Below are positions 2,471 to 38,400 of a stretch of DNA of 61,541 nucleotides, in pieces. The translations under genes and the position numbers were made by a program. The stretch's first letter is position 1, and every line of letters begins with the position of its first letter. The stretch spans positions 1 through 61,541 of IMG/VR virus record IMGVR_UViG_3300018481_000006. One strand, given 5' to 3'. The notes beneath the pieces were generated by a model. That model did no database searches and had not been told where the DNA came from. It saw only the letters and a program-made list of their open reading frames with translations. The stretch is from a virus (Duplodnaviria > Caudoviricetes).

Positions 2471-4558
2471 TCACGGGGCAGGCACGGCCTGCGGTTGTTG
2501 CGGTGCCGCTTGCGGCGGCGCGGGGGCTTGCGGCTGTTGCGGTGCTGCGCCGGGAACCGGTGCCGGCCCGCCCATCTGTGGCGGTGGCGGCTGCCCGGGC
2601 GGCACTTCCGGCGGACCCATGTCCGGCGGTCCCGGCGGTTGCTCGCCGGTGGCCTGCATCGGGTTCGGCTTCGGCTCCGGCACCAGCTTGTCGGTGTCCA
2701 TCTGTAAGGTCCGGGCGATGTCCTTGAGCAGGTACCTGCGTCCATCGATGCCCATGATCTGTAGATCGATGGGGTTGGCGGTCTGGGCCAAGAACTCGCG
2801 CTTGTTGTTGGCCTGCTGCTCTCTGGAGATGAGGCCCATCGCGCCCCGGGTATTGACGCGGAAGTCGCCCTTCAGCATCGGGTCCGGGTCGAAGATCATG
2901 TTGTGGATGTACAGACGGCTGACGATGCCGTCGATTGCCATGTCAATGTTGGCAATCGCCTGCTTGATGCCCTTGGAGGCGTTGTCCATGAGCATCGACA
3001 GACCGCTTGCCGTCCGCCCCGCCCCGCCTACAGAGGACGAGCCGTACACGTAGTTGGGGATGCCGGTGATCTCGTCGGCCTGCTTGGAAAACTGCATGTA
3101 GATGCCCATCAACTCGGCGGCGTTGGAGGGCGGCTGGAAGAAATTCACGCCCCGCTGTCCGCCGCCGGTCTTGTCCGAGGTGACCTGCCAGACCTTCCAC
3201 GGGAAGATCGAGGTCACGTCCTCGCCGTCGGGGAGGCGGTCGACCACCACCTCGACCTGCGGCCCCGACGAGATCGCCATGTTGTTCGCCAACGCTCTGG
3301 CTGCCGCGTTACAGACCGCCTGAATGTCGCGCATCAACTCCGGCAGCGCCCCGCCCCAGAAAGCTCCGGGAATGCGCTGCCAGCACGACGTGCTGTACGG
3401 GCGGGCACCCAGCGGGTGCGGGTTGATGACCGCCTTGAGGACGTGCGGCCCGATCCACCACGCATTGATTTCGTAGGGCTTTTCCTTCTCCAGATCGCCC
3501 TTGTGACCCCACTCCTTGAGCATCCTTCCGGGCACCGTGCCCCAGAACTCCAAGACGTCAAGCTCTTCGCTCTGGAAGGTGAGATTCTTGCCCTCCATGT
3601 TGTCGCGCTGGGTGTCTCCAGACAGCCAGTTCTTGTAGCCCTTCGGGTAAGCCTCCAGCGCGGCGGTGATCTGCTTGTTGTTGTAGCCGGGGACGCCGAG
3701 CATGTTGTACAGAGCGGTCGACAGCAGACGATGACGCTCGATCAGGTAGCCGTCGTTCGGCCCGGTGGAACCGGGGGACGGGTAGATGTCGTAGGGGCTG
3801 ACCCGGCTGAAGCTCTGTAACAGATCGTTGACCTGCACCGGCTGGTGGTTCGGTCCCCACGTCATCCTCGGCTTCCGCTTGACCACCGGACCCTTGATGA
3901 TCGCCGTCGGGTAGGTCACGAAGTCGTTGACGAAGTCGAAGAACGCCTCCTCGTAGCCGCCCTCTCTTAGCTGGTCGCGCATCTTGCCTTCCATGCGCGA
4001 CGCCGACTTGTCCGCCCCCTCGCGCAGCATGTACAGAGCGCGGTCGTGAATGTCGGACAGCCGCCGGGAAACGTCCTGCGGCAACAGCATCCCGCCCTCT
4101 TGCACCGCCTTGATCGCCTCCAGACGCACCTGATCGATGATCTGCGACTTCATCTCGGGCGGAAGCTCGGGGTTCTGTGCCGGATCGAGGTCGAACACGT
4201 CGGTGCCGGCAGAGGCCAGCACGTCCTTGATCCAAGACTCTGCCGCCCGACACTTGACGTCGGTGAGCATCATGTAGATGTCGGAGCCGCCGGTCTTGCG
4301 GATGTCGGCTTCCTTGCTCGGGTCGTAGACGCCGCGTCGTTGCCGCTGGCAGGTCAACAGACGCTCTTGGACGCCGGAGTTCTTCTCGTTCTTGGCCCGT
4401 TCCCAACAGATGTTGAGGTGCTTACTGAGTTCGCTCTGGAACAGCGAGTCGGGACCGCTGTGGCCGATGTTCTTGGCGTTGACGGTGATCTCGGTGTCCG
4501 GGGCCGGTCTATCGAGATAGACCACCTCTGCCGACTTGCTGGGCGATTGGTTGATCAT
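2471..4558 (-). CDS. Portal protein
   Basis: ~695 aa immediately downstream of terL; portal-like segments (RVSPYDIYPSP, DEITGIPNYVYG, GRTASGLSMLM); Pro/Gln-rich tail. Start placed at MINQSP (the ORF track start at 4642 overlaps terL). Confidence 0.85.
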   Translation of the reverse strand: MINQSPSKSAEVVYLDRPAPDTEITVNAKNIGHSGPDSLFQSELSKHLNICWERAKNEKNSGVQERLLTCQRQRRGVYDPSKEADIRKTGGSDIYMMLTDVKCRAAESWIKDVLASAGTDVFDLDPAQNPELPPEMKSQIIDQVRLEAIKAVQEGGMLLPQDVSRRLSDIHDRALYMLREGADKSASRMEGKMRDQLREGGYEEAFFDFVNDFVTYPTAIIKGPVVKRKPRMTWGPNHQPVQVNDLLQSFSRVSPYDIYPSPGSTGPNDGYLIERHRLLSTALYNMLGVPGYNNKQITAALEAYPKGYKNWLSGDTQRDNMEGKNLTFQSEELDVLEFWGTVPGRMLKEWGHKGDLEKEKPYEINAWWIGPHVLKAVINPHPLGARPYSTSCWQRIPGAFWGGALPELMRDIQAVCNAAARALANNMAISSGPQVEVVVDRLPDGEDVTSIFPWKVWQVTSDKTGGGQRGVNFFQPPSNAAELMGIYMQFSKQADEITGIPNYVYGSSSVGGAGRTASGLSMLMDNASKGIKQAIANIDMAIDGIVSRLYIHNMIFDPDPMLKGDFRVNTRGAMGLISREQQANNKREFLAQTANPIDLQIMGIDGRRYLLKDIARTLQMDTDKLVPEPKPNPMQATGEQPPGPPDMGPPEVPPGQPPPPQMGGPAPVPGAAPQQPQAPAPPQAAPQQPQAVPAP

Positions 4559-4563
4559 CGTGG

Positions 4564-6054
4564 TCAAGTCCAGCCGGACACGCTCTTTTGCGTTACCGCA
4601 CGCGCGCGGATCGGGTTCATCGCTGCCCTGATCCGCATACACAGGTACTGCAGGCCGTCATGCGGGTGGCTGTACTCGTCCTTCAGCGGACGGTCCTTGT
4701 AGCGTTCGCCAGCCGCCCTGACCCGCTCGTAGCGGTACTTGCCGTTGAAGCCCTTACGAAGCTGGGTGCAGGACGGGTCCAAGAGGAACCCGGGCTGCCC
4801 TTCCGAGAGTTGAGTCAGGAAGTAGGCGACCGCCTCGCGTCTCTGGATGAAGTCGTTGGTGGCGGCAGTCTCGGTGTACAAACCGGCCTCCAAGAGTTCC
4901 TGCACGCAGGTCTTTTCGTCGATCTGTGAACGCACATTGCCTGCCGGGTCACACACCGACTCGATCTTGGTGTACGGGAAGGCGTTGACCAACGCCGGCT
5001 TGACGATGACCCGCGCGAACTGGCGGATGCCCATGTCGTCGGCGACGTATTCGCGAAGAATCTGTAGCTGGCCCTTGGGGGTGATCTGGCCGACCACGCA
5101 GGCCGGGGTCAGCCCGAAATCCCAGCCCAAGAACAGCCGGGAGCCGGTGATGTAGGTGAGCGGCTTCTTCGCCACATGCACAGAGTCGTCCCACTCCGGA
5201 TACACCGGCTTGCCGTCCGCCGTCGTCCCGTACTGGCCGAGCAGGAACACGTTGATCCAGTCCTGATTCTTGCCCGGAATCTGGTTCAGCCAGTACTGGT
5301 AGCCGTTGCTGATGTTCTGTACGTTTTCGGCTGCAGGATTCGGCGCGTAGTCCTCGACGTCGGCCTCATTATCCAAGCGCAACAGTTGTTGACGGTCCTT
5401 GGGTTTCTTGATTAGCGCCCCGGGCTGGCGGAAGAAATGCCAGTCGGCGGGGGTTCTCTCCTCGGCGAAGTGGTAGTACCAGTGATCGTCGTCCGGCGGA
5501 TTGGTGTCGAGGATCACCCCGGTATCGACCGGCCCGCCCCAAATCTTCGGCGGGTATCTGCCGACCCGCTGGGTGAGCATGTCGAAGACCTCTTTCGGCA
5601 CCTCGGAACACTCGTTGATCCACGCCCCGGTCAGTTCCAGCGAGCGCAGCTTGCCGGTGTCCTCGGGAGAGTCGAGGGCGATGAACAGAACCTCCAAATC
5701 AAGGGCGGTCCCGTCGCCGATGTTGGGCAACGATAACCGGGAGGAAATCGGTGAATCCCACTTCATGGGCGCGATGTTGTCCGGGAACCACATCTGCCAC
5801 GTCTTGATGGTGGTCGACTTCAACTCCGGGAAGGTGTTGCGGATCACCGCCCACCTTGAGTTGCGGGTGCCACGGTGCGGCGTCTGCCGCAATGCGTGAT
5901 GCACGATCTCCACGCAGCAACTGGACGACTTGCCGGAGCCGACCGGACCCATCAGTCCCCTGACGAAGCCCCGCGCCTGATGGAACTTGGCCGCTTCCGG
6001 TCCCGGGGGCCGGTAGTCGACCGTCTCCTGCTTTCTGGCGTCGAGCGGCATCAC
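4564..6054 (-). CDS. terL: Terminase large subunit
   Basis: Walker A GPVGSGKS, Walker B-like AWINE, nuclease motifs LGWDFG and SHPHDGLQY. Confidence 0.95.
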   Translation of the reverse strand: MMPLDARKQETVDYRPPGPEAAKFHQARGFVRGLMGPVGSGKSSSCCVEIVHHALRQTPHRGTRNSRWAVIRNTFPELKSTTIKTWQMWFPDNIAPMKWDSPISSRLSLPNIGDGTALDLEVLFIALDSPEDTGKLRSLELTGAWINECSEVPKEVFDMLTQRVGRYPPKIWGGPVDTGVILDTNPPDDDHWYYHFAEERTPADWHFFRQPGALIKKPKDRQQLLRLDNEADVEDYAPNPAAENVQNISNGYQYWLNQIPGKNQDWINVFLLGQYGTTADGKPVYPEWDDSVHVAKKPLTYITGSRLFLGWDFGLTPACVVGQITPKGQLQILREYVADDMGIRQFARVIVKPALVNAFPYTKIESVCDPAGNVRSQIDEKTCVQELLEAGLYTETAATNDFIQRREAVAYFLTQLSEGQPGFLLDPSCTQLRKGFNGKYRYERVRAAGERYKDRPLKDEYSHPHDGLQYLCMRIRAAMNPIRARAVTQKSVSGWT

Positions 6055-6411: not shown

Positions 6412-6577
6412 GGGCTTACAGAGCTTTATTACGGACCTTATTACGGACGTGGGCTGGGTGGGGCTGAGAGATTACTCGTGTGGGCAGTCGAGTAATCCGC
6501 TCTGTAACAGAGCAGTGCAGCACCGCTAGGCTGGCGAGCAGCCTAGCGGTGAACACTCCTCCTGTCAACCTACAGAA

Positions 6578-6811
6578 CTACGGTTTTGCAGAGGGCTGGG
6601 TGGAAGGGGAAGGGGTGAACCTCCGGGGGCGGACGTACTTGATGCGGTTGCGCCACTGCTTGACCAAGATCACCCGGACGATGGTGATGGTCGGATTCTG
6701 TGGCTGGTAGCGTGGCACCGGATGCAGCAACTCCCCGTTCGGCCTGAACACGCAATCCTGATGCTTGAAGTGCCGCTGATGGCAGCGGTAGCAGTGCGGC
6801 GGCGGCTTCAC
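6578..6811 (-). CDS. Hypothetical protein (CxxC)
   Basis: 77 aa, overlaps the upstream stop. Confidence 0.45.
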   Translation of the reverse strand: MKPPPHCYRCHQRHFKHQDCVFRPNGELLHPVPRYQPQNPTITIVRVILVKQWRNRIKYVRPRRFTPSPSTQPSAKP

Positions 6812-7191
6812 TTCTTCGCGTCTCGCTTCGCCAGCGCCCTTCTCTCCTTCATGTACTCGCGCTGTCGCTCGTTGTACTTGTCCCGGCTGCCGCGACGTGT
6901 AGCCAACGTCTCGGACGACCTGACCATCTCGGGCTGGCCTTCTGGTGCGGTGACCACGGTCTTGGTTTCCTCGACAGAGCGTGGCTGTCTCGGGCGACCG
7001 GGGGCAGTTTCCTTAAGCCCCCCGGGTACCCTCACCTCGACCTTCGCCTCGGGCGGCAAAACACTCTGTGCCCCAAGCCTTGCCTTCTGTTCTCCCACAG
7101 TCGCTCCCTTATCGGTGAGGTCGACCTTGAAGACGTGAGGCTCGTTGCTCCAGTGCTTCACCTTGCACAGCCTACATAGGGGGGCGTCCAT
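6808..7191 (-). CDS. Hypothetical protein (N-terminal CxxC-x3-H, basic C-terminal helix)
   Basis: GGAGG RBS; CRLCKVKHW; YNERQREYMKERR. Confidence 0.65.
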   Translation of the reverse strand: MDAPLCRLCKVKHWSNEPHVFKVDLTDKGATVGEQKARLGAQSVLPPEAKVEVRVPGGLKETAPGRPRQPRSVEETKTVVTAPEGQPEMVRSSETLATRRGSRDKYNERQREYMKERRALAKRDAKK

Positions 7192-7299
7192 GTTCCTCCG
7201 TAGCTAACGTAGCTAACGTACTCTGTTAGCCACCTGTTAGCTACCGTTTTACTGCGCCGACGTGCGTGTGGGGGACATACGTTGAGGCTCAAGCCCACC

Positions 7300-7317
7300 C
7301 CGGGGGGTACCCCCCGG
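7300..7317. repeat. Perfect 18-bp palindrome CCGGGGGGTACCCCCCGG
   Basis: Seen directly in the non-coding gap between the divergent late and early arms. Confidence 0.85.
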
Positions 7318-7858
7318 TCCATACGCTCGTTCGCGGAGGCGCAGTTCTGTGCGCGTATGTACGCACCCACCCCCACCCATACGTAACGTGCGCAACTCTG
7401 TGCAGCGTAGGTAAGTCCTTGATTCGTAAGGGTAACGTACAGAGGTGCGGCCACATGATGATAGGTGCGCTCTGTACTAGGGGCGGTGACGCGGGACGCT
7501 CTGTAGCAAGGCGAAGCGGTGCGAGAGTTGCGCGAGAGTGCGACGTGTTTCCCCTATGACGGGACGAGTCACGCGTCTACGTACGTGACTCTCGGCACAG
7601 AGCGGTGATCGTCGTATTCGTACGTGGAGTCATAGGGTTACGTACTCGCGGGACAGGAGACGTAGAGCGTACCGGTGACCGGACGCTATCGCGTCCCACT
7701 TGGCGCTTCCACTCTGATCCAGCGTCTCTGGTAGGCCACTTACAGAGTGAGAGCCACGTTTCACCCATAGACGGCTAGCAGGAGAATACTTTCGCGGCGA
7801 GGAGGGCGAAGTAACTCGTTGACCGAGCGAACGATTCCCCTATGAAAACTAGCTCGAT

Positions 7859-7888
7859 TTGACAACAGTCGACGCGTTCCGGCAAAGT
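7859..7888 (+). promoter_or_regulatory. Candidate early promoter (TTGACA; weak -10)
   Basis: Perfect -35 at 7859-7864 just upstream of the hairpin array; -10 (CAAAGT) is poor. Confidence 0.4.
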
Positions 7889-7896
7889 TCATCTCG

Positions 7897-8179
7897 TCGA
7901 CGGGGCGAAACCCCGCCGATTCCGGTCCTCCTGACTCAGCCCTAGCGGCGAGTCATACGAAGGAGGCAGAGCGCGACGTTGTTGCCACGTCGGTCCGGAT
8001 CACCTCTGTAGCGTCTAGCAATCGCTGCAGAGCGCGTAGGGATTCCCAACCCCTATGCGGCACAGAGGCAAAGCCGCCTGCAGCGGACCTCTGTGCAAGG
8101 GACAGTCGTCCCACATGCGTTCCCCCATCCCCGGGAGCGCATGTGAGACGGCTTTCGCCGTCTCCCGCCTGCAAGCGGG
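7897..8179 (+). ncRNA. Putative highly structured leader or ncRNA (about 9 consecutive stem-loops)
   Basis: Back-to-back inverted repeats with G-U pairs that favour the + strand; no credible ORF. Confidence 0.55.
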
Positions 8180-8203
8180 CACCCGCAACTCTGGAGCCAC
8201 CCA

Positions 8204-8419
8204 ATGAACAAGCAACCCATCCTCTCGTCCGTCGTCATGTCGTTCGCCGCCGCCGACTACGGTGTCGACGCAGTGATCGTCGCCACGCCCGTCGGCTTCG
8301 CCGCATCCTTCACCGAGGACGGCGCGACGTTCTCGCTGGGCACGTACGCCGTCTACGACGACGCGTTCGATGCCGTCGACGCGATCATCGGCTTCGACGA
8401 CGACACCTTCGCCCGCTAG
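8204..8419 (+). CDS. Small acidic early protein
   Basis: GGAGCCAC RBS; 71 aa, Asp-rich C-terminus. Confidence 0.7.
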   Translation: MNKQPILSSVVMSFAAADYGVDAVIVATPVGFAASFTEDGATFSLGTYAVYDDAFDAVDAIIGFDDDTFAR

Positions 8420-8477
8420 GGCCAAACCCGCAGCCCCGGGCACTCCCGCCCGGGGCGCACGCAACTCTGGAGCCACG

Positions 8478-8723
8478 ATGGAAAATCTCGCCCGTATCCC
8501 CACGCATCTCTCCGCTGCCCCTACAGACCAAGGCTGGAAGCTCGTTGCTTGGCACACGTCGCTGGACATAGCGGCCTACGTCACCGGCGGCGCGTTCCCC
8601 TGCGAGGTGCTGCACATCAGCGGCATTGCCTACGCTGACGCCTACGCTGTGCAAACCGTCGTCACCCTCTGTGGCATGGGCAAGCGCGAAGCCTGCCGCT
8701 ATATCGCCAAGACCTACCGCTAG
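8478..8723 (+). CDS. Hypothetical early protein
   Basis: GGAGCCAC RBS before MENLARIP. Confidence 0.65.
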   Translation: MENLARIPTHLSAAPTDQGWKLVAWHTSLDIAAYVTGGAFPCEVLHISGIAYADAYAVQTVVTLCGMGKREACRYIAKTYR

Positions 8724-8851
8724 CAGCAGTGCCGTGCCGGTTGCCTCACTGGAGGCATCCGAGACTGCACCGCAGTCCCGCAGGCTCACGCTATGAGCCT
8801 GCCTTCCCCCAAGCTCGCCGTGATAGGCGGGCGCAACAGAGGAGCCACACT

Positions 8852-9253
8852 ATGGAAACCGTCCAGCATGGTCTGCCCGAGATGGCAGCCGACCCGCACT
8901 ACACCGTAGAACCATGCGACTTTGGCAGCGGAGAAATCCACGTCGTCGCCAACTGGCGGACTGTGCGAGGGATGCGAATCGCGCTTGCCATGCAGACGTT
9001 CCCTCCGGGCTGCGAAGCAGAAGCGCAGGAAGCCTGCGACGCGCTGAACGATGCCGCTCTGGAAGCGATCAACGCCGAGCTTGCCAATCTCGGCGAGCAA
9101 CACGCACTGGAGGCACGCTGTGCCTTCGTGGAGTGCCCGCAGTGCGACGGCATTGGCGGCGAGTTCTTCGACGAAGGCGACGGTCGTGGCCCCTGCGGGC
9201 ATGGGTGCTACCGCTGCGCCGGTTCGGGCAAAGTGCCCCGCAACGATCCCTAA
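8852..9253 (+). CDS. Early protein with DnaJ-type CxxCxGxG zinc finger
   Basis: AGGAGCCAC RBS; CPQCDGIG...CYRCAGSG. Confidence 0.7.
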   Translation: METVQHGLPEMAADPHYTVEPCDFGSGEIHVVANWRTVRGMRIALAMQTFPPGCEAEAQEACDALNDAALEAINAELANLGEQHALEARCAFVECPQCDGIGGEFFDEGDGRGPCGHGCYRCAGSGKVPRNDP

Positions 9254-9278
9254 CCCAACCCTACAGAGGAGCAACACT

Positions 9279-9641
9279 ATGGGAATTTTCGGATGGAGTT
9301 TGCCTCCCGGCTGCACTCAAGCGCATATCGACGCTGCCTATGGCACAGAGCAACCTTGCGACGTCTGCGGCTACGACGTCGACGATTGCGTCTGTCCCGA
9401 GTGCCCGACCTGCGGCACGCAAGGCGCTCCCGAGTGCTACGTGACGCATGGCATGGTGCGGTCACAGGCGCAACTCGACGGCTTCGCTGCCCGTGAGATC
9501 GAGCGTGATAGGCAGGAACGCGAAGGGGAGGCGACGTCTAGAGCGGAGGCCGAGTACTGGGCAAGCCCGCAGCGCAAGGTAGAGGAAGCCGAGTTGCAAG
9601 CGTACTGGCGCGACTTGGAGGCGCATCACCGCAACACGTAG
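9279..9641 (+). CDS. Cys-rich early protein
   Basis: AGGAGC RBS; MGIFGWSLPPGC, CDVC...CVCPECPTC. Confidence 0.7.
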   Translation: MGIFGWSLPPGCTQAHIDAAYGTEQPCDVCGYDVDDCVCPECPTCGTQGAPECYVTHGMVRSQAQLDGFAAREIERDRQEREGEATSRAEAEYWASPQRKVEEAELQAYWRDLEAHHRNT

Positions 9642-9698
9642 CGTAGTGCCTGTTGCCGCCCGTGCATTATGCGGATGGCAACGGAGACTGTGCTGCAG

Positions 9699-9727
9699 TT
9701 GACAACATCTGTTGACAGAGGCATCAT
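9699..9727 (+). promoter_or_regulatory. Sigma70-type promoter TTGACA-N17-CATCAT with operator-like palindrome
   Basis: -35 at 9699-9704, -10 at 9722-9727; GACAAC-ATCT-GTTGAC at 9701-9716. Confidence 0.65.
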
Positions 9728-9780
9728 AGTCGTCCGGTTAGCCGCCGGATTCATCCCCCGTTTCACTCTAGGAGCCAACG

Positions 9781-14278: not shown

Positions 14279-14619
14279 GGGTACTCATAGGCGGCGGCTC
14301 GCAGCGCGGCTTACAGAGGGCGGTCGAAAGCTGCGTCGGCCTTGGCCTTTCGTTCGACTACCTGCCGAGCGACGCCGAGGCGCAGGTCTGGAAGCGCAAG
14401 GCCCGCAACGCTGACGTAGCGATTGCCCGCACCGGTCTGCTCTCGCACAAGGCATGGGTGAACCTGAAGGCGTACTGCCCGAGGGTGATCCCTGTGCCCG
14501 AGAACGGCGAGGCCGCTCTGTTGCGAGTGATACAGAGGCTGGCGCATGAGGGCGAGGCCGCGTGGGTGATGTGGACCCCCACCGAAGGTGCGGAATTTCC
14601 ACTTGACAACGTTTGTTGA
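14275..14619 (+). CDS. DUF2325-like protein
   Basis: VLIGGG...ADVAIARTGLLSH pattern. Confidence 0.6.
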   Translation: MRVLIGGGSQRGLQRAVESCVGLGLSFDYLPSDAEAQVWKRKARNADVAIARTGLLSHKAWVNLKAYCPRVIPVPENGEAALLRVIQRLAHEGEAAWVMWTPTEGAEFPLDNVC

Positions 14620-14632
14620 CAACCGCTACATT
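14603..14632 (+). promoter_or_regulatory. Sigma70-type promoter TTGACA-N18-TACATT with operator-like palindrome
   Basis: GACAAC-GTTT-GTTGAC at 14605-14620. Confidence 0.6.
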
Positions 14633-24156: not shown

Positions 24157-24195
24157 GCAACAAGTGTTGACATCGACGTTGACACGTGACATCAT
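24157..24195 (+). promoter_or_regulatory. Sigma70-type promoter TTGACA-N17-CATCAT with operator-like palindrome
   Basis: -35 at 24167-24172, -10 at 24190-24195; GCAAC-AAGT-GTTGAC at 24157-24171. Confidence 0.65.
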
Positions 24196-29483: not shown

Positions 29484-32400
29484 CTACCACTTCGCCACCG
29501 TCACCGTGTAGCTCTTCAGCATCCGGTTGTTGAGTTCCTCGATCTTCTTGTCGATGCGGTTCTTCTCTGTAGCCTCGTCGTCGACCTTGAGCTTGCCGTC
29601 AATGATCGCCGCCTTGCGCTTGTACAGTTCGCCGGTCTGCTTGGTCATCGCCTTGAAGGTGGCGTCGATGCCGGCCCAGCCGGGATGCTCCTTCGCCAAC
29701 TCGCGCCGCTCCTCTGGCGTACCGTTCTTGGCGATGTTCTGGAACTCGTTGATCTCGGCCTTGGCGTCCTGCAGGGCTTCGTAGACCTTGCCCTTGGAAG
29801 GCTCGGCCAGCACCCGCCGCACCACCGGATACTCCTTCGTCTCTGTAGCCTCGCCGGTGGCGATCTTCTTCAGCGTCGACAGACCACGGCCCAGCACGGT
29901 CGGGATGCCGGGGAGCGCGGTGCCGGCCCAGAAGTCGATGCTGTCTGGGCTGACGTCGATGCCACCCGCCTTGGCCGCGCTGCCCTGCGTCAGCGAGTTC
30001 AGCCCGCTGGCGATAGCGCGCGACGTCGCGCTGGCGCTCATGCTGCCGGTCTGTGACTCCGGCTGCTTGGCCCCGTAGGCGCTGCTCTGCTCGCGGTAGA
30101 TGCGACTGCCGAAGCGGTTCTCGTTCATCCCGAATTCGATGAACGGATCGACGGCAGTGGGTGCCACGGTCTTTGCAAGCCATCCAGCGAGCGTCTTGCT
30201 ATCCGCACCCCCAATCGGGTCGAACGCGCTGTGTGCGGCCTTCAGGCCGGCGAACGCGGACCCCACCGGCGAGCGCCCGAAGAACGCGTCGGCGGCGAAG
30301 TTGCCCATCGCGTAGAACGCGTTCCAGCCGTACGGCAGCGGCAGCTTGGGGCCGTGCGCGAACGGGATGATGTTGGTCGAGCGGTCCCAGTCGGAAAGCT
30401 GCTGGTAGTCGGGGATGCCGTTCTCGTCGTCGTCGCCCCCGGCGTTGCCGGTGAGTCCGGCCACGAAGCCCATGCCGAACAGACCGGCAGCGATGGCCTT
30501 GCCCTGCGGCGAGCGCATCGCTTGGTAGATACGCGCGGTGCCCTGCACGGCAGGGTTGAAGAACAGGAACAGAGAGGTTAGCTCGCTGCTGGTGCCCTTC
30601 CTCTGGAAGTTGGTGGTCAGGTTCTTCACATAGTCGGCGGCGTTGGCCTTCGTCCAGCCGGCCTCGACCAGCACCTTGTAGGCGATCACCCGTGGTGCCG
30701 CCTCGATGGACGAGTTGACGTCCTCCAGCCACTTCACCGCGCCCTCGGCGTGCGACTTCTTGTACGCGTCCAGCGCCTTGCCCTTGATCCCGGTGCCGGT
30801 CAGGCGCTGCTCCATCGCCTTCAGCTTTTCGGCGCGGTCCTTGAGGCTTTCCAGAGCGAAGAACTTGGTGATGCCGCCCTGCTCGGCGAGGTCGTGGTAC
30901 CACTGGCCCAGACCGGCCTGATGGTTGGGGTCTGTAATCGCCTTGTAGATGTCCTTGTGGCCCTTCAGGGCCAGTATCTGCTTGAGTACCGTCTTCTCCA
31001 TCCCCGGCGGCATGTTCGGTTTGTTCTTGTCCGCCGCGATGTTGTAGAACGCCGTCTGTACGTCGCGTGCCGCGTTGATCAGCGCCCACTCCGGGTTGAG
31101 CGTGGTCATCATCGAGGCAAGGAACTTGTTGAATTTGCGCGCCTTGTCCAAGATCACGCCGTCGCCAGTGGCGCTGGCCCCGGTTATCGCGTTGGCGAAA
31201 TCCTCCTGATGGAGATCGATCTTGGTCGGTATCCCGTTCTGGTACGCTGTCACCACGTTGGGGTTGGTGAGATCGTTGTCGTTGGTGTAGCGGATGGTGC
31301 CCTTCTCGGGATCGAAGGTGCGCCGCGCCTTCATCGGGTTCAGCGTCCAGAACTTGGGGTCCGGAAAATCCGCCGCCAGATTGGCGAGCGACAGAGCGAC
31401 TTCGTTCTTGCCGGCGCGCACGATCTTCGCCTCGGCGTCCAGCAACAGATGCGAGACGACGTGCTTGGCTTGGGTTTCCCGGCCCATCGCGTACTTCAAC
31501 AGAGACGCCTTGCCGGAGAAGCCACGGCCCACGCCCAGCCCGCTGGTGATCTCTGTGGTGTCGTCGTCGTCCAGACCCTTGAGCGGTCTGTAGTGCTGGT
31601 ACTTGCGCAGGCCAGCGGCGGTGTCGGCGTCGATCAGGCCCGCCTTCTCCATCCGGCTGACCTTGTCCTCGCTGATCTCGTCGGCGATCCTGCCGATCTC
31701 GTTTAGCTCGGCGGCGTACGGCACGCTGGCGTAGGTGCGCAGCGTGCGGTTGGCTTCGTCTGTAGACATCCCGGAGCCGTCGGTGATCGGCCCGCCGTCA
31801 CGATCCTGCGTGCGCTGCTCGATCTGCTCGTTGCGCTCCTCGGCGTGCTGCGCGATCAGGAAGGTGTCGATGTCGTTCATCGTCGCGCCCTTCTTCATCG
31901 CCTTGCCGATCTGCTCCTCCATCGGCTCCGCGTACTTGCGCTGGAACCGCTCCATCTGCTCACCGACCTTGCCGGCGAACAGCGTGATCTTCTGGTAGAC
32001 GTTGGAGGCTGCGCTGATCACGCCGCCCTTGCGCACGATGTCTTCCTGCAGCGAGCGCACGTCGATGTTCGCGTCCTGTGCGCGTCTCTGTAGATTGCGC
32101 CGCAACTCCTTGCCCTTCTTGTTGAACAGACCGGTCGCGTCCAACGCACGGTCGACGTTGCGGGTGAACCAGTTCTGCCCCGGCTGCGGCGAGGTGTCGT
32201 GGTCGTACAGAGCATCCGGGCCACGCGGCCACGCGTCGTTGAAGCCCTCCTCCAGAGCGGAAGCCTTGCGCCGTTCGAGCCTCACGCCGCGCTCGCGCAG
32301 CATGTTGATCGCCTCTACAGAGGTGGCGGCGTTATGCTCGGAGTAGTCGTCGCGGATGTCGCCGTCGGGGGTCACCGCCTTGTAGATGAACCACCGCTGG

Positions 32401-35400
32401 TTGGGCGCGTTGTAGGTCGCCATGCCGACGATCTTGTCGCCCTTGGTGGCGTAAATCTCCTGCGGGTTGAGCAAGTCCTTGCGCGAGAACTTGACCTGCG
32501 CACGCCGCCCAGAACTCCTCGACAGAGCGCGCGTCGCGGTTTCGCGGTTCAGCCGGTCGGCGTAACGCTCGGCTAGCCGCCGCGCCGCTTGGCGTTCGTA
32601 TCGTCTCTGAGTACGCTCAACAAACGGCCCCGCTTGGCCTGCAGTTCCTTGGTTGGCTTGGTCACCTTCTGCTGGCGCATTATGTCCAGCACCAAGTCCA
32701 TAGAGTCCTTTGATACGGTTTCCAAGCCCTGCTTCCCGGAGGAGTCCTTGGTACGGTTTGGTTTCATCGGTGAATAGGTTCCTGAAGTCGACGTTGGCAG
32801 CGATCAGATCGTCTGTAAGTGCGCCGTCGTTGAGCAGTTCCATCGCGTCACGCGATTCGCCGGTGCGCTCCTGAAGCTGGTACAGAGTCTTGGCCCATGC
32901 CCAGATCGTGGTCTGTACCTCGGCAGGCGTCCACTCCACGCCGGTGCGCTTGGTGAGGATGCGCGCCGCCTCGCGAGTGCGTGAGTTCATGGCTAGGTAG
33001 CCATGTCCCTTGCCGGAGTCGAGTCCGGTCAGCTTGCCGCCGAATATCTCCTGCTCGACCGCTGCGTACGCCGCCATCCACGCGTCGTTGGTGACCTCGC
33101 TGGCGTCACCGATCAGGTTGCGGAAGAACGAGTTGACCTTCGGTCCCGACAACAGAGAGATCATGCTGCCCGGGTCTTCGGCGGTCAGCGAGCGGATCGA
33201 GTTGTTGACCAGCGCCGGCAGCACAGAGAGATCGGCGATGCGGGCACGAGCCACCTTGGAACGCTTCTCCAGAGCGGATAACTCGGCGACCAGCGTGTCG
33301 TGACCTTTCCTCGGGTTGATGCCGAACATCTTGGCGATGTCGCGCAGGTCGTCGGTTTCGCGCGTCTCCATCGGCGGAACGCGGATCGCCCCACGCAGGA
33401 TTTGCTTGATCGTCTTCGCATCTGTGGGCCGTCCGGCCTTGTCCCAGTCGCGCCATACCGCCAGCGAGTTGCGCAGGTTGTCCTGCACGCTGACCCGTGG
33501 CGACATCGACGACAACAGAGCGGCGAAGCGCGGCGCGTCGATGCCGAACACCTGATGCAACGCCGCTACAGAGCCGGTGTACCAGTCGCGCTTGGCGCGT
33601 CCGGCGTGGGCAACCGCCGCCATCTCCTGCGCGCTCGGCACGTGCTGCAGGGTGCGCAGGAAGTTGAAGGCGATCTGCGCCATCGAGCCGTCTTTGAGGT
33701 ACAGCTTCTTGGCCTCGGCTTCGGTCAGGAACCGCTCGGCGGCGCGCAGCGCCTTCGCCTGACTGCCGGTGGTCTTGGCGAGTCCTTTGCGCGAGTAGCG
33801 GATGTCGGGGTTGCGTGGATCGAACGTGCCGACGTTCTCGGTCGCGCTCTTGATCTGCCCCGGCTCAAACGCGATGTACGAATCCTTGCCGGCGTCCTCG
33901 TACTTGTTCTTGTAGACGATGCCGTCGTGACCCGATTGCTTGGCGAGGTCGATGACCTCCTTCCAGTTTGCGTTGTCGCCCATGTCGCGCACCCGCATGG
34001 GGTTCTGTAGCGACAGGTAGGTTGCGGTCAGCGTGCCAAGGTCTTCCATATCAGACTCGGCGTTCGCGCTCTCAGCAAACTGGCGAGCGGTACCGCGCCC
34101 CGCCAGCACCGCACGCTCCTCGGCGTGCCAGCTTTCGTCGGTGACATCCTCCGACGTCGTGCCGTCATTCATCTTCCAGTACCAGCGCCCGTCCCGTTTG
34201 TACGCGGTGACCCCGTCCACGGCGTCGTCGATCTGCTTGCCGGTAGCGCGCTCCTGCGCAGCCTGAAACGTGCCGAAGTGCATCGGCCCGCTGGGCGTGT
34301 AGTTGTCGGGATCGGAAGCGAAGCTGCCGTGGTGGTAGACCGTCATCGGCCTGCCGGTCGGCGTCACCACCTTGCTGTCCTTGAACCAGTCCTTGAACGC
34401 CGCCGTGTCGGTTTGCCGCTCTGCGGTGTCGACTTCCGGGTTGCCGTACTCATCGACCGGACCGATATAGCCCATGCCGAACTCGGCACGAGAGAACTTG
34501 ATGCCACCCAACAGAGGCTTGATGATCCGCCGCATCGGGTCGGGCAGCTTGCTCAACGTCTCGGGATCGTCCAGCACCCGGTCGACCAGCTTGCGCAGCC
34601 GCTCTTCCGCCTTCTCGCCCCACTCGGTCTTGAAGTGGCGTCCGACCACATCCTGTTGGGCCGGCGTCAGGTTCTGTAGACGCTGCGCAATCGCCGGACG
34701 CTCGGCCTTCACCAGCGCCTCCAGACGTTCGCGCTTTTCCTTGACCTTGGCCTTGGCCGCGTCGACCTTGGCCTGCTCCTTGGCCTTGACCTTCTCCTCC
34801 TTCACCCGCTCGCGCTCGATGAGAGCGAGGCGCTTCTGTTCCTCTGTAAAGCCCTTCTCGCCCTCGGCGCGCCACTCGTTGATCTGGTCGTACGCCTCGA
34901 CGATGCCTTCCTCGTCGGCGACGGCGCGGATGAAGTGGTTCTTGTGATCGCCGATCAGGTCGTCGAAATCCGGGTCGCTCTTCTTGGTGGCGATCTTCTC
35001 GTCCCAGATTTGCTTCGCCGTCTGGTACGCCTCGCTACGCCTGACCTGACCGCTGGCGGCTTCGCCGCGCCGGTTCTTCGCCTCTGATGCGTTGACCTGC
35101 CCGAACACCCGCTCCAGTTCCGGGTAGGTGATGTCGCGACGCCGGTACATATCGTAGGCGTCGGCCCAGTAATCCTGCACGTCCTCGGACAGCTTCACCC
35201 ACGGGAACTCGCCGTCGGCTTCGTCCGGCTCCATCTTCTCGTCGTAGAACCACGCCGCCTTCTCGCGGACTTGGGCCTTGGTCAGCTTCTCCAGTTGGCG
35301 ATGCTCGACGATCAGGTCGCGCACCCTGCGGTTCAGCACCCGCAGGTCTTTGAACATGCGCGTCTCTTCTACAGAGCGCGGCTTCTTCTTGACGTTGGGG

Positions 35401-38400
35401 TCGGCGAGCTTCAGCGCCTCGGCCAGCGCCTGCTTCCAGCGCGCCAGCATGGCAACGAACTCTTCCATCATCCGCACCACGAGCGGCCTCTGTTCAACGT
35501 CAACAGAGTCGTGGAGCATCTTCCAGAACTCTTCGTCCATGAACGCCGTGCCCATCGCGTCGGCGGACACTTCGTCGCGAGTCTGGTCGCCAATGTCCTC
35601 CAACGACGGGCGCGTCTCGTCGCGCGCCTTGGCTTCGGCCTCCATGCGCAACTTGAGGTTGTGCTGGTACGTCGCGAACATTTTGCGGTCGGCGATCTTG
35701 TCGACCTCGTCCATGAACTTCGACCACAACGCCGGGTTCAACTCGCGGATGTTGTGGCCGATCTCGTGGCCGATGACGAACATCTCCGGCTTCTTGGCGT
35801 TGGCGTTGACGTAGATGGTGTCCGGGTCGCCCGGGAGCTTGAACCCATCCATCGCGTCGACACGCTGGTTGGCCGGCGTGTAGAACTGCACGTTCTGGTC
35901 GAGCAGCTTGTGGATGACCAGCGAGAAGTTCTTGTACTTATCCGGCGTGTCAACAAGCGTGACGCTGTGCTTGTTGCCGAACTCCGGCGCAAGGTATTCG
36001 TTGACCAGCACCTCGCGCTCGTCGCGGCTGGCTCCCTCCGGGACGGTGCGCTCTGTAGCGGTGCGGCCCTTGCGGCGAATCTTCTTGCGCAGCACCTTCA
36101 GCGCCTCGTCCGCCGTGCGCTGCTTCGGCTCCTTCTTCTCCTCTGTAGGCTCCTTGGCCGCTTCCTCGGCAGCCGCGTCAGCCTCCTCCTTGATCGACTC
36201 GTGAGTGCGAAAGTCGTCGGCGATCTTGTCCAGAATGCTGTTGATCGTGTCGTCGCGCCGAACCGCGATGCGGATAACCGTGCCGTCCTCGTAGTGCTGC
36301 TCGATGCGCTGGAACTTGCCGTTCTTCAGCCAGACGTGGAGCGTGGCCGGCTCGCCGTTGCCGTCGATGCCGTCGAAGGAAAGGTCCGGCTCTAGCGCCT
36401 CTGCTTTCCCTTCATCTTTGGCGGCAGCTTCTTTCCCTTGCTCGCCTTGTTCCACTCGTCCACGTTTACGCCCTGCTTTGCCAGCTTCTTCCGATTCGCG
36501 TTGAAGAACTTCTGCTGCGCCTTGCTTTGGAACGGCATCTTTCGCCTCCTTGGCTTTGCTGACCTCCTTGGCCTTCTTGGCGGCGGGAGCGTCGTCCTTA
36601 AGCAGCACCGTGGCGGTGGGGTCGTAGTCGCCATCCACCTCGCGGTCGCCGTGCGCGACGGTGAGTCGCACCCGACCACCCTTGCCCTTGCCGACCTTGG
36701 TCACGCGCACGAACTTGCTGCCGCCGACGCTGATCCAGTTGCCGACCCGAAGATGGCTGACCGGCGTCTCGCCCTCGACCGGCGCTTTTTCAGCAGTAGC
36801 CTTCGGCGCGGGTTTCTGCTCTGTAACCGGCGGCGCTGGAAGTTTCGGCGCGACCTTGGCGGCCTTCGCCTTGCTGGTCTTCTTGGCGTCGGTGGCGGCG
36901 GGAGGCTCTGTAGTCTCTGTAACCACCGGCGTTTCGGTGATAGTGGGCGCTAACTCGGCATCGACCTTGGCGGCCCGCTCCTCCAGAACCTCGGTGATCG
37001 GGGTGATCTCTGTGGTGCCGTCGACGGGCGTCTGGTCCTGCACCGCCTTGACGTTCGGCCCACCCGGCGTGGTGGCGGCCTGCATGACCACGTTGCCGGC
37101 AGCGTCCTTGGCGGTGACCGCGACCTTCGGCCCGATCTGGCTGGCGACCTCCAGCTTGCTCTGTGGGATACCGAGAAGGCTGGCGCGCTGCTTGTCTGTA
37201 AGGGGGCCGTGGATGTTGAGGATGGCCTTGGCCTTGTCCGGGTTGGTGGTCAGGTACAGACCATCGCCACCCTTGAAGATTTTCGACACGCCCTTGGGGA
37301 TCGCCGGGATCGGTGTCCCTGACCGGATGCCGGCGATGTACACCGTGTCCTTGGGGTGCTTCGGGTCGGTCATCGCCGCGATCTGCGCGTTGATGTCGCT
37401 CGACGGCTCGGGCATGGTGAACGCCGCCTCGGCCTGCCGCTCGTCCACCACTGGCGCGTTGGCGGCTGTAGCGGGCGCTGCGGTGACCGGAGGTGCGCCG
37501 GTAGCCGCGACGTCCGCTGGGGCTGCCACTGGCGGCTGCAGACCCTGCGCCGTGGCCTTGGGAGCGTGGCGGTCCGCCAGTGCGTCCAGATCGGCCTGCA
37601 CGCGGCCCAACGTCGCGTAGATGGCGGGACGCGCACCGATGGAGTCGAGCGCGGCCTGTGCGTTGCCAACCAGTTCCTTGAGGCCGGTCTGTACCGCCGG
37701 CAGGTCGCCCTGCCGAGTCAGCACGCTGATGCGCTCGGCCAAGTCGTCCGCCGCGCCCACCGGATCGCCGCCCGGAGGCTGCAGCCCACGGCGCTCGCCC
37801 GGGGTTATCGCCGGCATCTCGCGCTCCGGCAAGCTCTCGACGGTAGCGTTGGGGTCGCCCTTCAGGTACCGCTCCTGCTCGGCAGCGTTGCGCCCACGCG
37901 CGCCGGCCACCGCGCCTGCGCCGACGCCACCGACTGCGCCGACAGCGGCCTCGTTCAGGTAGCTGCGAATCGCCTCGGCGTCGGCCAGCGTCTGTTGCGC
38001 GCCCCAGCGTTCGGCCACACCCTGCAGCCCCTCTGTGCCGCCGTCGAGGAAGCCTTGCGCCAGACCGCCCTTGATCACCCGTCCGACCACGTTGGAACCG
38101 TGACCGGCCCCGCGCAGCACCCGCCCGATGGCGGTCATGTCGACCAGCGTGTCCAGCCCCGCAGAGCCGGCAGCGGCAGCACCGATGCGGCCAAGCTCCG
38201 GCTTCGGCCCCTCGCCGGCCTGATAGCGTTCCTCGGCCCCGCCGTAGATGCTGCCTGCCGTAGCGCCGAGATTGAGGCCGTAGCTGGCGGCGGTGGCCCC
38301 CACCAGTTGCGCGGTGTACTCGGCAGCCTTGAGCTTGGTGGCCTCGCTGATCGCGTTGCGGCCCGCCATCTGTGCCGCCTGCTGGGCTGCCGCCTCGGCG

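Follow-up and report, generated by a model that had tools for sequence, protein, structure and literature searches.

A conserved hairpin array heading the early region of a podovirus-like phage is very probably an untranslated leader RNA

The tailed soil-phage genome IMGVR_UViG_3300018481_000006, a single contig of 61,541 bp and 63% GC (called the window when taken at its full length), carries an array of back-to-back hairpins at positions 7897-8179, between a TTGACA hexamer and the first early gene. The array is real and beyond chance, its architecture recurs in two diverged relatives, and its central three-way junction (the M domain) occurs once in the genome. The array very probably constitutes a ~310-nt untranslated 5' leader of the first early transcript of the phage. 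Judged by sequence comparison, it is best regarded as a structured leader RNA family, new and unannotated, with three known members and outside any described family. By analogy with known systems, the RNA would act in cis, possibly as a put- or canT-like antiterminator. A leader combined with a cis-acting mechanism is the best overall explanation that we can offer, and we put it forward tentatively.

Fold, position and conservation of the array

Minimum-energy folding of 7897-8179 (+ strand) with DNA parameters gave nine separate back-to-back elements, with the ends listed in Table 1 except that H9 spanned 8146-8163, and paired 190 of the 283 bases (95 pairs); the longest uninterrupted helix is 12 bp. 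An earlier sequence-only reading of this DNA had listed these nine elements, and their ends were recovered within 1-2 nt. It had also suggested a comparison with dinucleotide shuffles, in which the + strand RNA reached -148.4 kcal/mol against -108.4 +/- 5.6 for the shuffles (z = -7.21), and none of 200 shuffles folded as well. The - strand RNA reached -152.4 kcal/mol (z = -5.3), and folding with DNA parameters gave z = -7.42 for the + strand and -7.6 for the - strand. Among 633 genome segments of 283 nt, the GC-corrected energy of the array was the lowest (residual z = -3.17), in a ranking where the array was optimised in register and the other 632 segments were not; at the 120-nt scale, its best part ranked 3rd of 1024 segments. 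The residual z is less extreme than the shuffle z because the natural sequence of this genome generally out-folds shuffles (the genome regression predicts ~-116 kcal/mol at the GC of the array, against the shuffle mean of -108) and because the register was chosen.

The DNA upstream of the array showed no excess structure, with z = +0.22 (+) and +0.25 (-) for 7600-7896 and z = -1.49 (+) and -0.93 (-) for 7300-7599. The excess folding thus sets in at the point expected for the 5' end of a transcript from the TTGACA promoter and ends 14 nt before the ribosome site. The distances given by the sequence-only reading, a start about 30 nt after the TTGACA and an end just before the first early ribosome site, are 32 nt (from 7859-7864 to 7897) and 14 nt (to GGAG at 8193-8196) when measured. 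No U tract follows H10, where the bases are CACCCGCAAC; this hairpin is therefore no intrinsic terminator, and the transcript should run on into gene 1; the terminator scan of 6500-9500 found no terminator-like site on the + strand.

Two independent homologous leaders were found, both on metagenomic contigs, L001 (the same contig as L020, L027, L056, L152 and L199) and L077 (the same phage as L005, L021, L097, L176 and L192). Relative to the window, they show a terminase identity of 85% and an ATPase identity of ~57-60%. In the control region, blastn against both relatives aligned one block of 40-52 nt, 7261-7312, plus exact words of 10-14 nt. The order of parts is common to all three phages: TTTGACA, a -10-like element at 17-18 nt, a hairpin based on GTCG/CGAY, an (N)CCGG/CCGG(N') helix enclosing two stem-loops, a hairpin with a YNTAGCRA-type loop, GGGAC-loop-GTCCC, a hairpin of 10-12 bp, GAGACGG-loop-CCGTCT, a phage-specific last hairpin, GGAGCCA and the start codon. 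The hairpins at 8033-8059 and 8060-8096 are extra in the window and fall in gaps in both relatives. H4 may match the YNTAGCGA-loop hairpin of L001 and L077; this homology is ambiguous, as MAFFT placed the hairpin of the relatives against 8033-8059 instead. The 12-mer around the TTGACA is identical in L001, the -10 counterparts of the relatives are TACGGT and TAAGGT with a 17-nt spacer, and hairpins equivalent to H1 lie directly 3' of the -10 in both. From this arrangement, transcription is predicted to start near 7894-7897. The first genes behind the leader are unrelated (71, 75 and 116 aa, no similarity), and the next common gene is that of the ATPase.

Table 1. Predicted features of the promoter, the hairpin array and the first translation start
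Feature	Position	Strand	Basis
-35 hexamer TTGACA, presumed early promoter	7859-7864	+	TTTGACA invariant in three-way alignment A2
Weak -10-like CAAAGT, 18-nt spacer	7883-7888	+	Alignment A2
H1, 5'-terminal hairpin; GTCG/CGAY base kept, top variable	7897-7919	+	Folds; counterparts in L001 and L077
M domain, three-way junction	7921-7999	+	RNAalifold, covariance model
M domain, P1	7921-7925/7995-7999	+	
M domain, P2, carrying P2' (7933-7937/7950-7954)	7927-7932/7961-7966	+	
M domain, 3' bulge ATACGA	7955-7960	+	
M domain, junction CAGAGCG	7967-7973	+	
M domain, P3 with 7-nt loop TGTTGCC	7974-7979/7987-7992	+	
H4, stem with CTCTG/CAGAG, loop TCTAGCAAT	8004-8032	+	Folds
H5, hairpin with a CCCCTATG copy; no clear counterpart in relatives	8033-8059	+	Fold, alignment A2
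H6, two-tier hairpin on CACAGAGG/CCTCTGTG; this phage only	8060-8096	+	Gapped in both relatives
H7, GGGAC-N4-GTCCC; stem invariant in three of three, loop variable (4-6 nt)	8099-8112	+	Five pairs, none vary
H8, 12-bp hairpin	8113-8144	+	Alignment: 3 of 7 outer pairs changed on both sides
H9, GAGACGG(C)-loop-(G)CCGTCTC; stem nearly invariant, loop variable (4-7 nt)	8145-8164	+	Alignment A4
H10, last hairpin; sequence different in each phage	8164-8179	+	Side-by-side reading
Translation start of the first early gene: 16-mer GCAACTCTGGAGCCAC, GGAG 8193-8196, ATG 8204	8185-8206	+	

Covariation was assessed with RNAalifold on plain MAFFT alignments that were not fitted to the structure (A3, junction domain; A4, 3' domain). 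In the M domain, 14 of the 25 predicted pairs showed compensatory change on both sides, and 92% of the cells were paired, against 40-51% when the 3' partners were slid by 1-3 columns; none of 500 column shuffles reached the observed values, a control that is not a probability with three sequences. In the 3' domain, compensatory change was seen in 6 of 29 predicted pairs, and 90.6% of the cells were paired against 32-46% after sliding. The compensatory changes that the sequence-only reading required of homologues are thus present in both domains. A3 and A4 together hold 8 G-U cells on the sense strand and 5 C-A or A-C cells, several of the latter where MAFFT visibly shifted a strand.

The M domain is conserved mainly where it is unpaired. 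Between the window and L001, 23 of 50 paired columns (46%) are identical, against 22 of 24 (92%) in the unpaired core, which consists of the linker, ATACGA, CAGAGCG, the 7-nt loop and GT. In the more distant L077, the architecture is kept and 13 of the 24 core positions are shared. This is how an RNA looks when its unpaired bases are recognised or engage in tertiary contacts.

The sequence-only reading had favoured a + strand RNA because of G-U pairs. Three G-T pairs (8009/8027, 8036/8056 and 8120/8137) do occur among the 95; however, in the window alone the - strand folds equally well, and the relatives are needed to tell the strands apart. The sense and antisense RNA z values are -7.2 and -5.3 in the window, -3.1 and -0.9 in L001, and -5.1 and -2.7 in L077, the sense strand being better in all three phages. 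H8 has wobble pairs on the sense strand in both L001 and L077. The + strand RNA itself gained support on other grounds as well: the three phages share a promoter at whose predicted start the structure sets in, the non-coding DNA upstream lacks excess structure, and the fold is kept through compensatory changes in the two relatives.

The leader belongs to no family that we could match. Rfam includes EAR. A search of the whole genome against Rfam 15 at the gathering threshold gave no match, and 6500-9500 at E <= 10 gave sub-threshold chance matches only (e.g. miRNA models at 19-22 bits against thresholds of 67-78); a single sub-threshold chance match of this kind came from L001 and L077. The description of the RNA as unannotated has therefore held as far as Rfam is concerned, which has nothing similar. 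Covariance model R1 of the junction domain matched a single place in the genome (93.7 bits; the second-ranked hit scored 19.9 bits, E = 0.056, filters off) and, in 35 + 34 other loci, nothing beyond the two known phages.

Further searches returned to the same two relatives. A distant blastn search of 7400-8700 against 50,697 phage records gave no match, and neither did tblastn of gene 1 against phage records. The terminase query of viral contigs gave 17 loci, 8 of them at 82-90% identity, and the leader was reached only in L001 and L005. DNA-pattern scans of viral contigs returned 3, 12, 35 and 34 stretches with 1, 2, 1 and 2 real matches, respectively (the last judged by model screen), every one being one of the same two contigs. 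The metagenome pattern scan gave 93 stretches, of which 80 loci were examined; among these, 4 passed the follow-up motif, and L056, L077 and L097 were real and came from the same two phages. L048 was rejected although it passed the motif, and L067, L136, L151 and L155 were rejected after reading. The ATPase protein query gave no match, and the ATPase alignment query re-found only the phage of L077. The M domain was absent from all 15 genome-contig loci reached by terminase alignment, all at <=62% identity. L010-L013 (63% terminase identity) have a different, AT-rich and repeat-laden region, with mildly structured leaders (z = -2.3, -1.4). At the equivalent place, L011 (5230-5480), L012 (5230-5480) and L013 (5230-5470) carry a ~250-nt AT-rich block with many short direct and inverted repeats, e.g. 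TACGGTATACCGTA-like, followed by a conserved TTGAGGTGGGGA-type doublet; this block is taken to be another type of control region, with an origin as a further possibility.

A possible action on the host RNA polymerase

No RNA polymerase gene was found among the open reading frames (ORFs) scanned (35 with PHROGs, 33 with Pfam), and transcription by the host enzyme is therefore assumed. In the mechanism that we propose, host RNA polymerase would transcribe the leader from a putative sigma-70-type promoter (TTGACA at 7859-7864) straight into the gene at 8204. The nascent leader would fold into H1 and the 80-nt M domain, followed by one to three variable hairpins, with four more set close together at the 3' end. 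The M domain would bind the elongating polymerase, or a host factor on it, in the manner of put, EAR and canT, and the polymerase would thereby withstand Rho as well as the terminator-like hairpins that separate the early genes. Along the long untranslated stretch, the close packing of the 3' hairpins would deny Rho and RNase E any bare RNA. That the leader works in cis on its own transcription complex is a proposal by analogy, for which we have some preference and considerable doubt.

Four observations make us favour an effect in cis on the polymerase. The domain with the conserved core lies ~25 nt after the predicted start and in this resembles putL, whose place is directly past its promoter (PMC9378689). 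RNA antiterminators are multi-hairpin leaders of 70-452 nt in mobile-element operons (PMC11658703). The leader travels with the promoter and not with a gene. Lastly, each of the three phages has hairpins with short U-rich tails ahead of the ATPase gene; one such hairpin lies just before the ribosome site of that gene in each, and L001 and L077 have no TTGACA between the leader and these hairpins.

One of the closest known systems is put of phage HK022. There, putL and putR are cis-acting folded RNAs just past an early phage promoter that act on the host polymerase with no phage protein, and put is made up of two stem-loops in ~70 nt (PMC9378689). The M domain has two stem-loops (P2 and P3) in 79-81 nt and starts ~25 nt after the predicted start. 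Unlike in put, these stem-loops are closed by a third, 5-bp helix into a three-way junction, and the whole leader is ~4 times longer; put was compared by description. The contacts of put with the polymerase (PMC9378689) may be confined to gamma-proteobacteria. Known RNA antiterminators just past a promoter range from put of ~70 nt (PMC9378689) to canT of Tn916, which needs 341-452 nt (PMC11658703). The RNAs canT, EAR (Bacillus eps) and conAn2 (pLS20) are long multi-hairpin leaders past the promoter of a long operon, orientation-specific, cis-acting and processive. The leader described here matches them in size class and position. They are Gram-positive and have no detectable relation to it, and their target terminators are clearly intrinsic, whereas only weak terminator-like hairpins are present here. 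The leader may also be compared with lambda nut (boxA/boxB, with N), a hairpin signal by which an early leader RNA reprograms the polymerase; in the present array, H7 and H9 are short hairpins whose stems do not vary in sequence. In boxB, the loop is what gets recognised; in contrast, the loops here vary in length and sequence. Unlike in the lambda N system, no small basic early protein is conserved in the three phages, whose first genes are unrelated.

Several points weigh against this reading. The promoter scan of 6500-9500 returned no promoter-like site, and the CAAAGT site fails its 9-of-12 rule. No RNA sequencing run was found to contain the leader sequence, and the contigs of one DNA run covered only 7487-7800 plus a stray 39 nt, with zero over 7812-8372. 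Three independent sequences make the covariation anecdotal. The hairpins before the ATPase gene have 4 T in 8 by eye, where the terminator scan needs 5, and are weak terminators. The ATPase gene of this phage is preceded by a TTGACA promoter-like site of its own, at 9699, so that the leader transcript may need to cover only ~1.5 kb, which weakens the need for antitermination. Model R1 finds one copy per genome, unlike the two copies putL and putR. The 3' domain shows the reverse of the M-domain pattern, its stems being 69-81% identical and its unpaired columns 27-38%; this fits hairpins that matter as duplexes, and it would also fit recognition as duplex DNA or RNA. Finally, the CTCTG and CCCCTATG motifs considered below are also enriched in the untranscribed upstream DNA, a hint of a further layer at the level of DNA.

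RNA-only control of host RNA polymerase is known to us from very few systems (put, EAR and canT/conAn2), each found by genetics in a model organism. The leader is a candidate for such control from an uncharacterised phage lineage. Its anatomy is modular, and the conservation pattern of the junction domain suggests that the single-stranded bases are read by something; the same leader before unrelated first genes amounts to a natural swap experiment. Should it prove to reprogram the polymerase or to shield the first transcript, the leader would offer a new tool-like read-through part for high-GC hosts and, in addition, an entry point to early expression in phages without their own polymerase. 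Even if it were only a stabilising leader, it would still be a new, unannotated RNA family. A bolder proposal, which we regard as rather doubtful, is that the M domain represents a new class of self-sufficient regulatory RNA. One form of this proposal is a processive antiterminator that binds the polymerase without help from a protein and has no relation to put, EAR or canT; the other is an aptamer for a host molecule that gates the takeover genes. In either case it would form part of a portable promoter-leader cassette before interchangeable early genes, in uncultured soil podophages that inject a giant polyvalent protein.

Competing explanations

The leader and the intergenic hairpins could instead be a stability or processing scaffold, serving as RNase-protective ends or cleavage sites that yield stable monocistronic mRNAs while the polymerase is unaffected. 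We consider this unlikely, yet it is the strongest of the rivals. The early region of T7 is a precedent: in this podophage, host polymerase transcribes an early operon with a leader of several hundred nt and hairpins in each intergenic gap, and RNase III sites yield stable monocistronic early mRNAs. The present phage shares the long leader and the intergenic hairpins, which occupy every early intergenic gap (8420-8460, 8724-8852, 9642-9690) and are also found in L001 and L077. H1 lies at the very 5' end, and the 3' hairpins keep their stems and vary their loops, as if only the duplex mattered. In contrast to T7, no helix here exceeds 12 bp, which is short for a classical RNase III site, as such a site requires about two helical turns. 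Furthermore, ~300 nt far exceeds what a protective 5' hairpin needs, and a scaffold leaves unexplained why the M domain keeps 22 of 24 unpaired positions against 23 of 50 in its stems. We know of no T7 counterpart of a 5' three-way junction with conserved unpaired bases.

A trans-acting RNA is a weaker candidate. During host takeover, the leader, or an excised M domain, would bind or titrate a host protein or RNA; the polymerase, a defence sensor and a global RNA-binding protein are examples. The leader persists although different genes follow it in each phage, so its role would be independent of any particular downstream gene; it would be the first RNA made, and the conservation of the M domain resembles that of a protein or ligand site. 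However, the 3' end of the leader has no terminator or recognisable processing site, and we regard a free RNA of this kind as quite improbable.

The array could also be an element of the DNA itself. Its inverted repeats would then be paired sites for a protein (a regulator, a small terminase subunit or a ParB-like protein) or would form single-stranded DNA hairpins during ejection, replication or packaging. Both strands fold equally with DNA parameters (z = -7.4 and -7.6), the array lies between divergent operons, a frequent place of genome ends or pac sites, and the H7 and H9 stems are invariant in sequence. Repeated motifs point the same way. CTCTG/CAGAG (often CTCTGT) is ~4-fold enriched in 7192-8203 (15 in 1012 nt against 3.8/kb genome-wide), including the untranscribed part, and no other 1-kb bin of the genome is as rich in it as 7000-7999. 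The control regions of the relatives behave likewise, with CTCTG at 13.8/kb against 3.0/kb in the rest of the locus in L001 (505-1375, -) and TCTGT at 16.5/kb against 5.1/kb in L077 (2452-3300, -). All four genome copies of CCCCTATG lie within 7175-8057, at 7175, 7551, 7837 and 8050, and its 7-mer also occurs at 7631. Such features lose weight beside others that a DNA element leaves unaccounted for: the excess folding stops sharply at the promoter, the loops inside the invariant stems differ in length (4-6 and 4-7 nt), more than a dimeric operator could accommodate, and the M-domain stems change sequence completely yet stay paired. The antisense z is also consistently worse in the relatives. 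An array acting only as DNA is thus a remote prospect in our judgement, less so a DNA layer beside the RNA: the two probably coexist.

The single-stranded hairpins suggested by the sequence-only reading are weakened by these results, and their version with a virion RNA polymerase is unlikely. N4-type virion RNA polymerases use hairpin promoters. The 3212-aa ORF at 29484-39122 (-) showed LPD38 (5e-28), DUF7178 and a sub-threshold ART-PolyVal match in Pfam, that is, polyvalent-protein domains only, and no polymerase domain at the Pfam level, so that an N4-like virion polymerase using hairpin promoters was rejected. The protein is a giant, multi-domain polyvalent protein that is probably injected.

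A sensor leader, in which the M domain would bind a metabolite, an ion or a host protein and so set the translation or elongation of the early genes, is more doubtful still. The ~80-nt three-way junction with near-invariant unpaired bases and covarying stems is an aptamer pattern (unpaired core 22 of 24 against stems 23 of 50, with 14 of 25 pairs compensatory), a pattern that implies no ligand. In the three minimum-energy and centroid folds, no alternative pairing with a terminator or the ribosome site was seen, a reading of folds and not a dedicated search, apart from one between the 5' end and GGAG that is peculiar to L001; in the other folds GGAG is unpaired. Moreover, ~190 nt of other hairpins separate the M domain from the start codon, and Rfam gave no riboswitch match.

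Functionless chance palindromes in a GC-rich spacer are hardly credible: the genome is 63% GC and natural sequence generally out-folds shuffles, but the z of -7.2, the first rank in the genome and an architecture kept through compensatory changes in two diverged phages speak against chance.

Control-region motifs and gene context

The sequence-only reading had seen CTCTG/CAGAG in two stems, and the copies at 8004/8028 and 8063/8089 do build the stems of 8004-8032 and 8060-8096. The window-specific H5 and H6 are built from CTCTG/CAGAG and CCCCTATG motifs. Copies of CTCTG/CAGAG often stand in inverted pairs with variable spacing, and the motif may be a protein-binding site. The 11-mer TTCCCCTATGA occurs exactly at 7549 and 7835, the second copy ~14 nt upstream of the -35. 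L001 has an inverted copy of the CCCCTATG motif at the same place before the -35, and L077 lacks it. The CCCCTATG copies are candidate regulator sites flanking the early promoter. On the late-operon side (7201-7317), the block 7261-7312, the only one in the control region that blastn aligns to both relatives, is 88-90% identical and ends in a perfect palindrome at 7300-7317, and tandem GTTAGCTAC-type repeats occupy 7201-7245, just before the first late gene. Possible roles of 7201-7317 are those of a late promoter or leader and of a packaging signal.

The array sits within a ~1-kb non-coding gap (7192-8203) between divergent late (-) and early (+) blocks. The - strand block encodes the terminase (4564-6054), portal (2471-4642), capsid, tail fibres and internal virion proteins. 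From 8204 on, genes are mostly on the + strand and include an AAA ATPase, a VWA protein, an HNH nuclease, a helicase, Erf and an exonuclease. This gene content is podovirus-like; cultured relatives are remote, with portal identity <=34% and terminase identity <=43%. The assembly is circularly closed and was opened at an arbitrary point, because an open frame of 361 codons on the - strand runs without a stop across the joined contig ends (1/61541). The genome has no tRNA or tmRNA genes.

The first early gene (8204-8419) has a third-position GC of 0.93. A + strand ORF at 8055-8207 (50 aa) was rejected as a leader peptide, since it lacks both a ribosome site and a counterpart in the relatives. 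By eye, early proteins 3 and 4 (8853-9253 and 9280-9641, +) are zinc-finger-like, with many paired cysteines and CxxC runs, and gave no family match; the first early protein of L001 likewise ends with CxxC motifs. GC-rich hairpins fill each gap between the small early genes (8420-8460, 8724-8852, 9642-9690 and 9734-9752), and L001 (~205-300, -) and L077 (~2010-2115, -) have GC-rich hairpins as well; the U-tract rule of the terminator scan was satisfied by none of them.

Further TTGACA promoter-like sites with 10 of 12 matches lie at 9699-9727, 14603-14632 and 24167-24195 (+); the first and the last are in gaps just upstream of the ATPase (9781) and Erf (24235) genes, and the total of such sites is not above shuffle expectation. 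The 16-mer GCAACTCTGGAGCCAC is exact before the first two early genes, at 8185-8200 and 8461-8476. GGAGCCA has 22 copies on the + strand, all within 8193-28526, and 7 on the - strand; at least 11 of the 22 precede a picked ORF by 8-12 nt. Early genes of L001 and L077 are also preceded by GGAGCCA, which looks like an extended, lineage-wide translation start signal.

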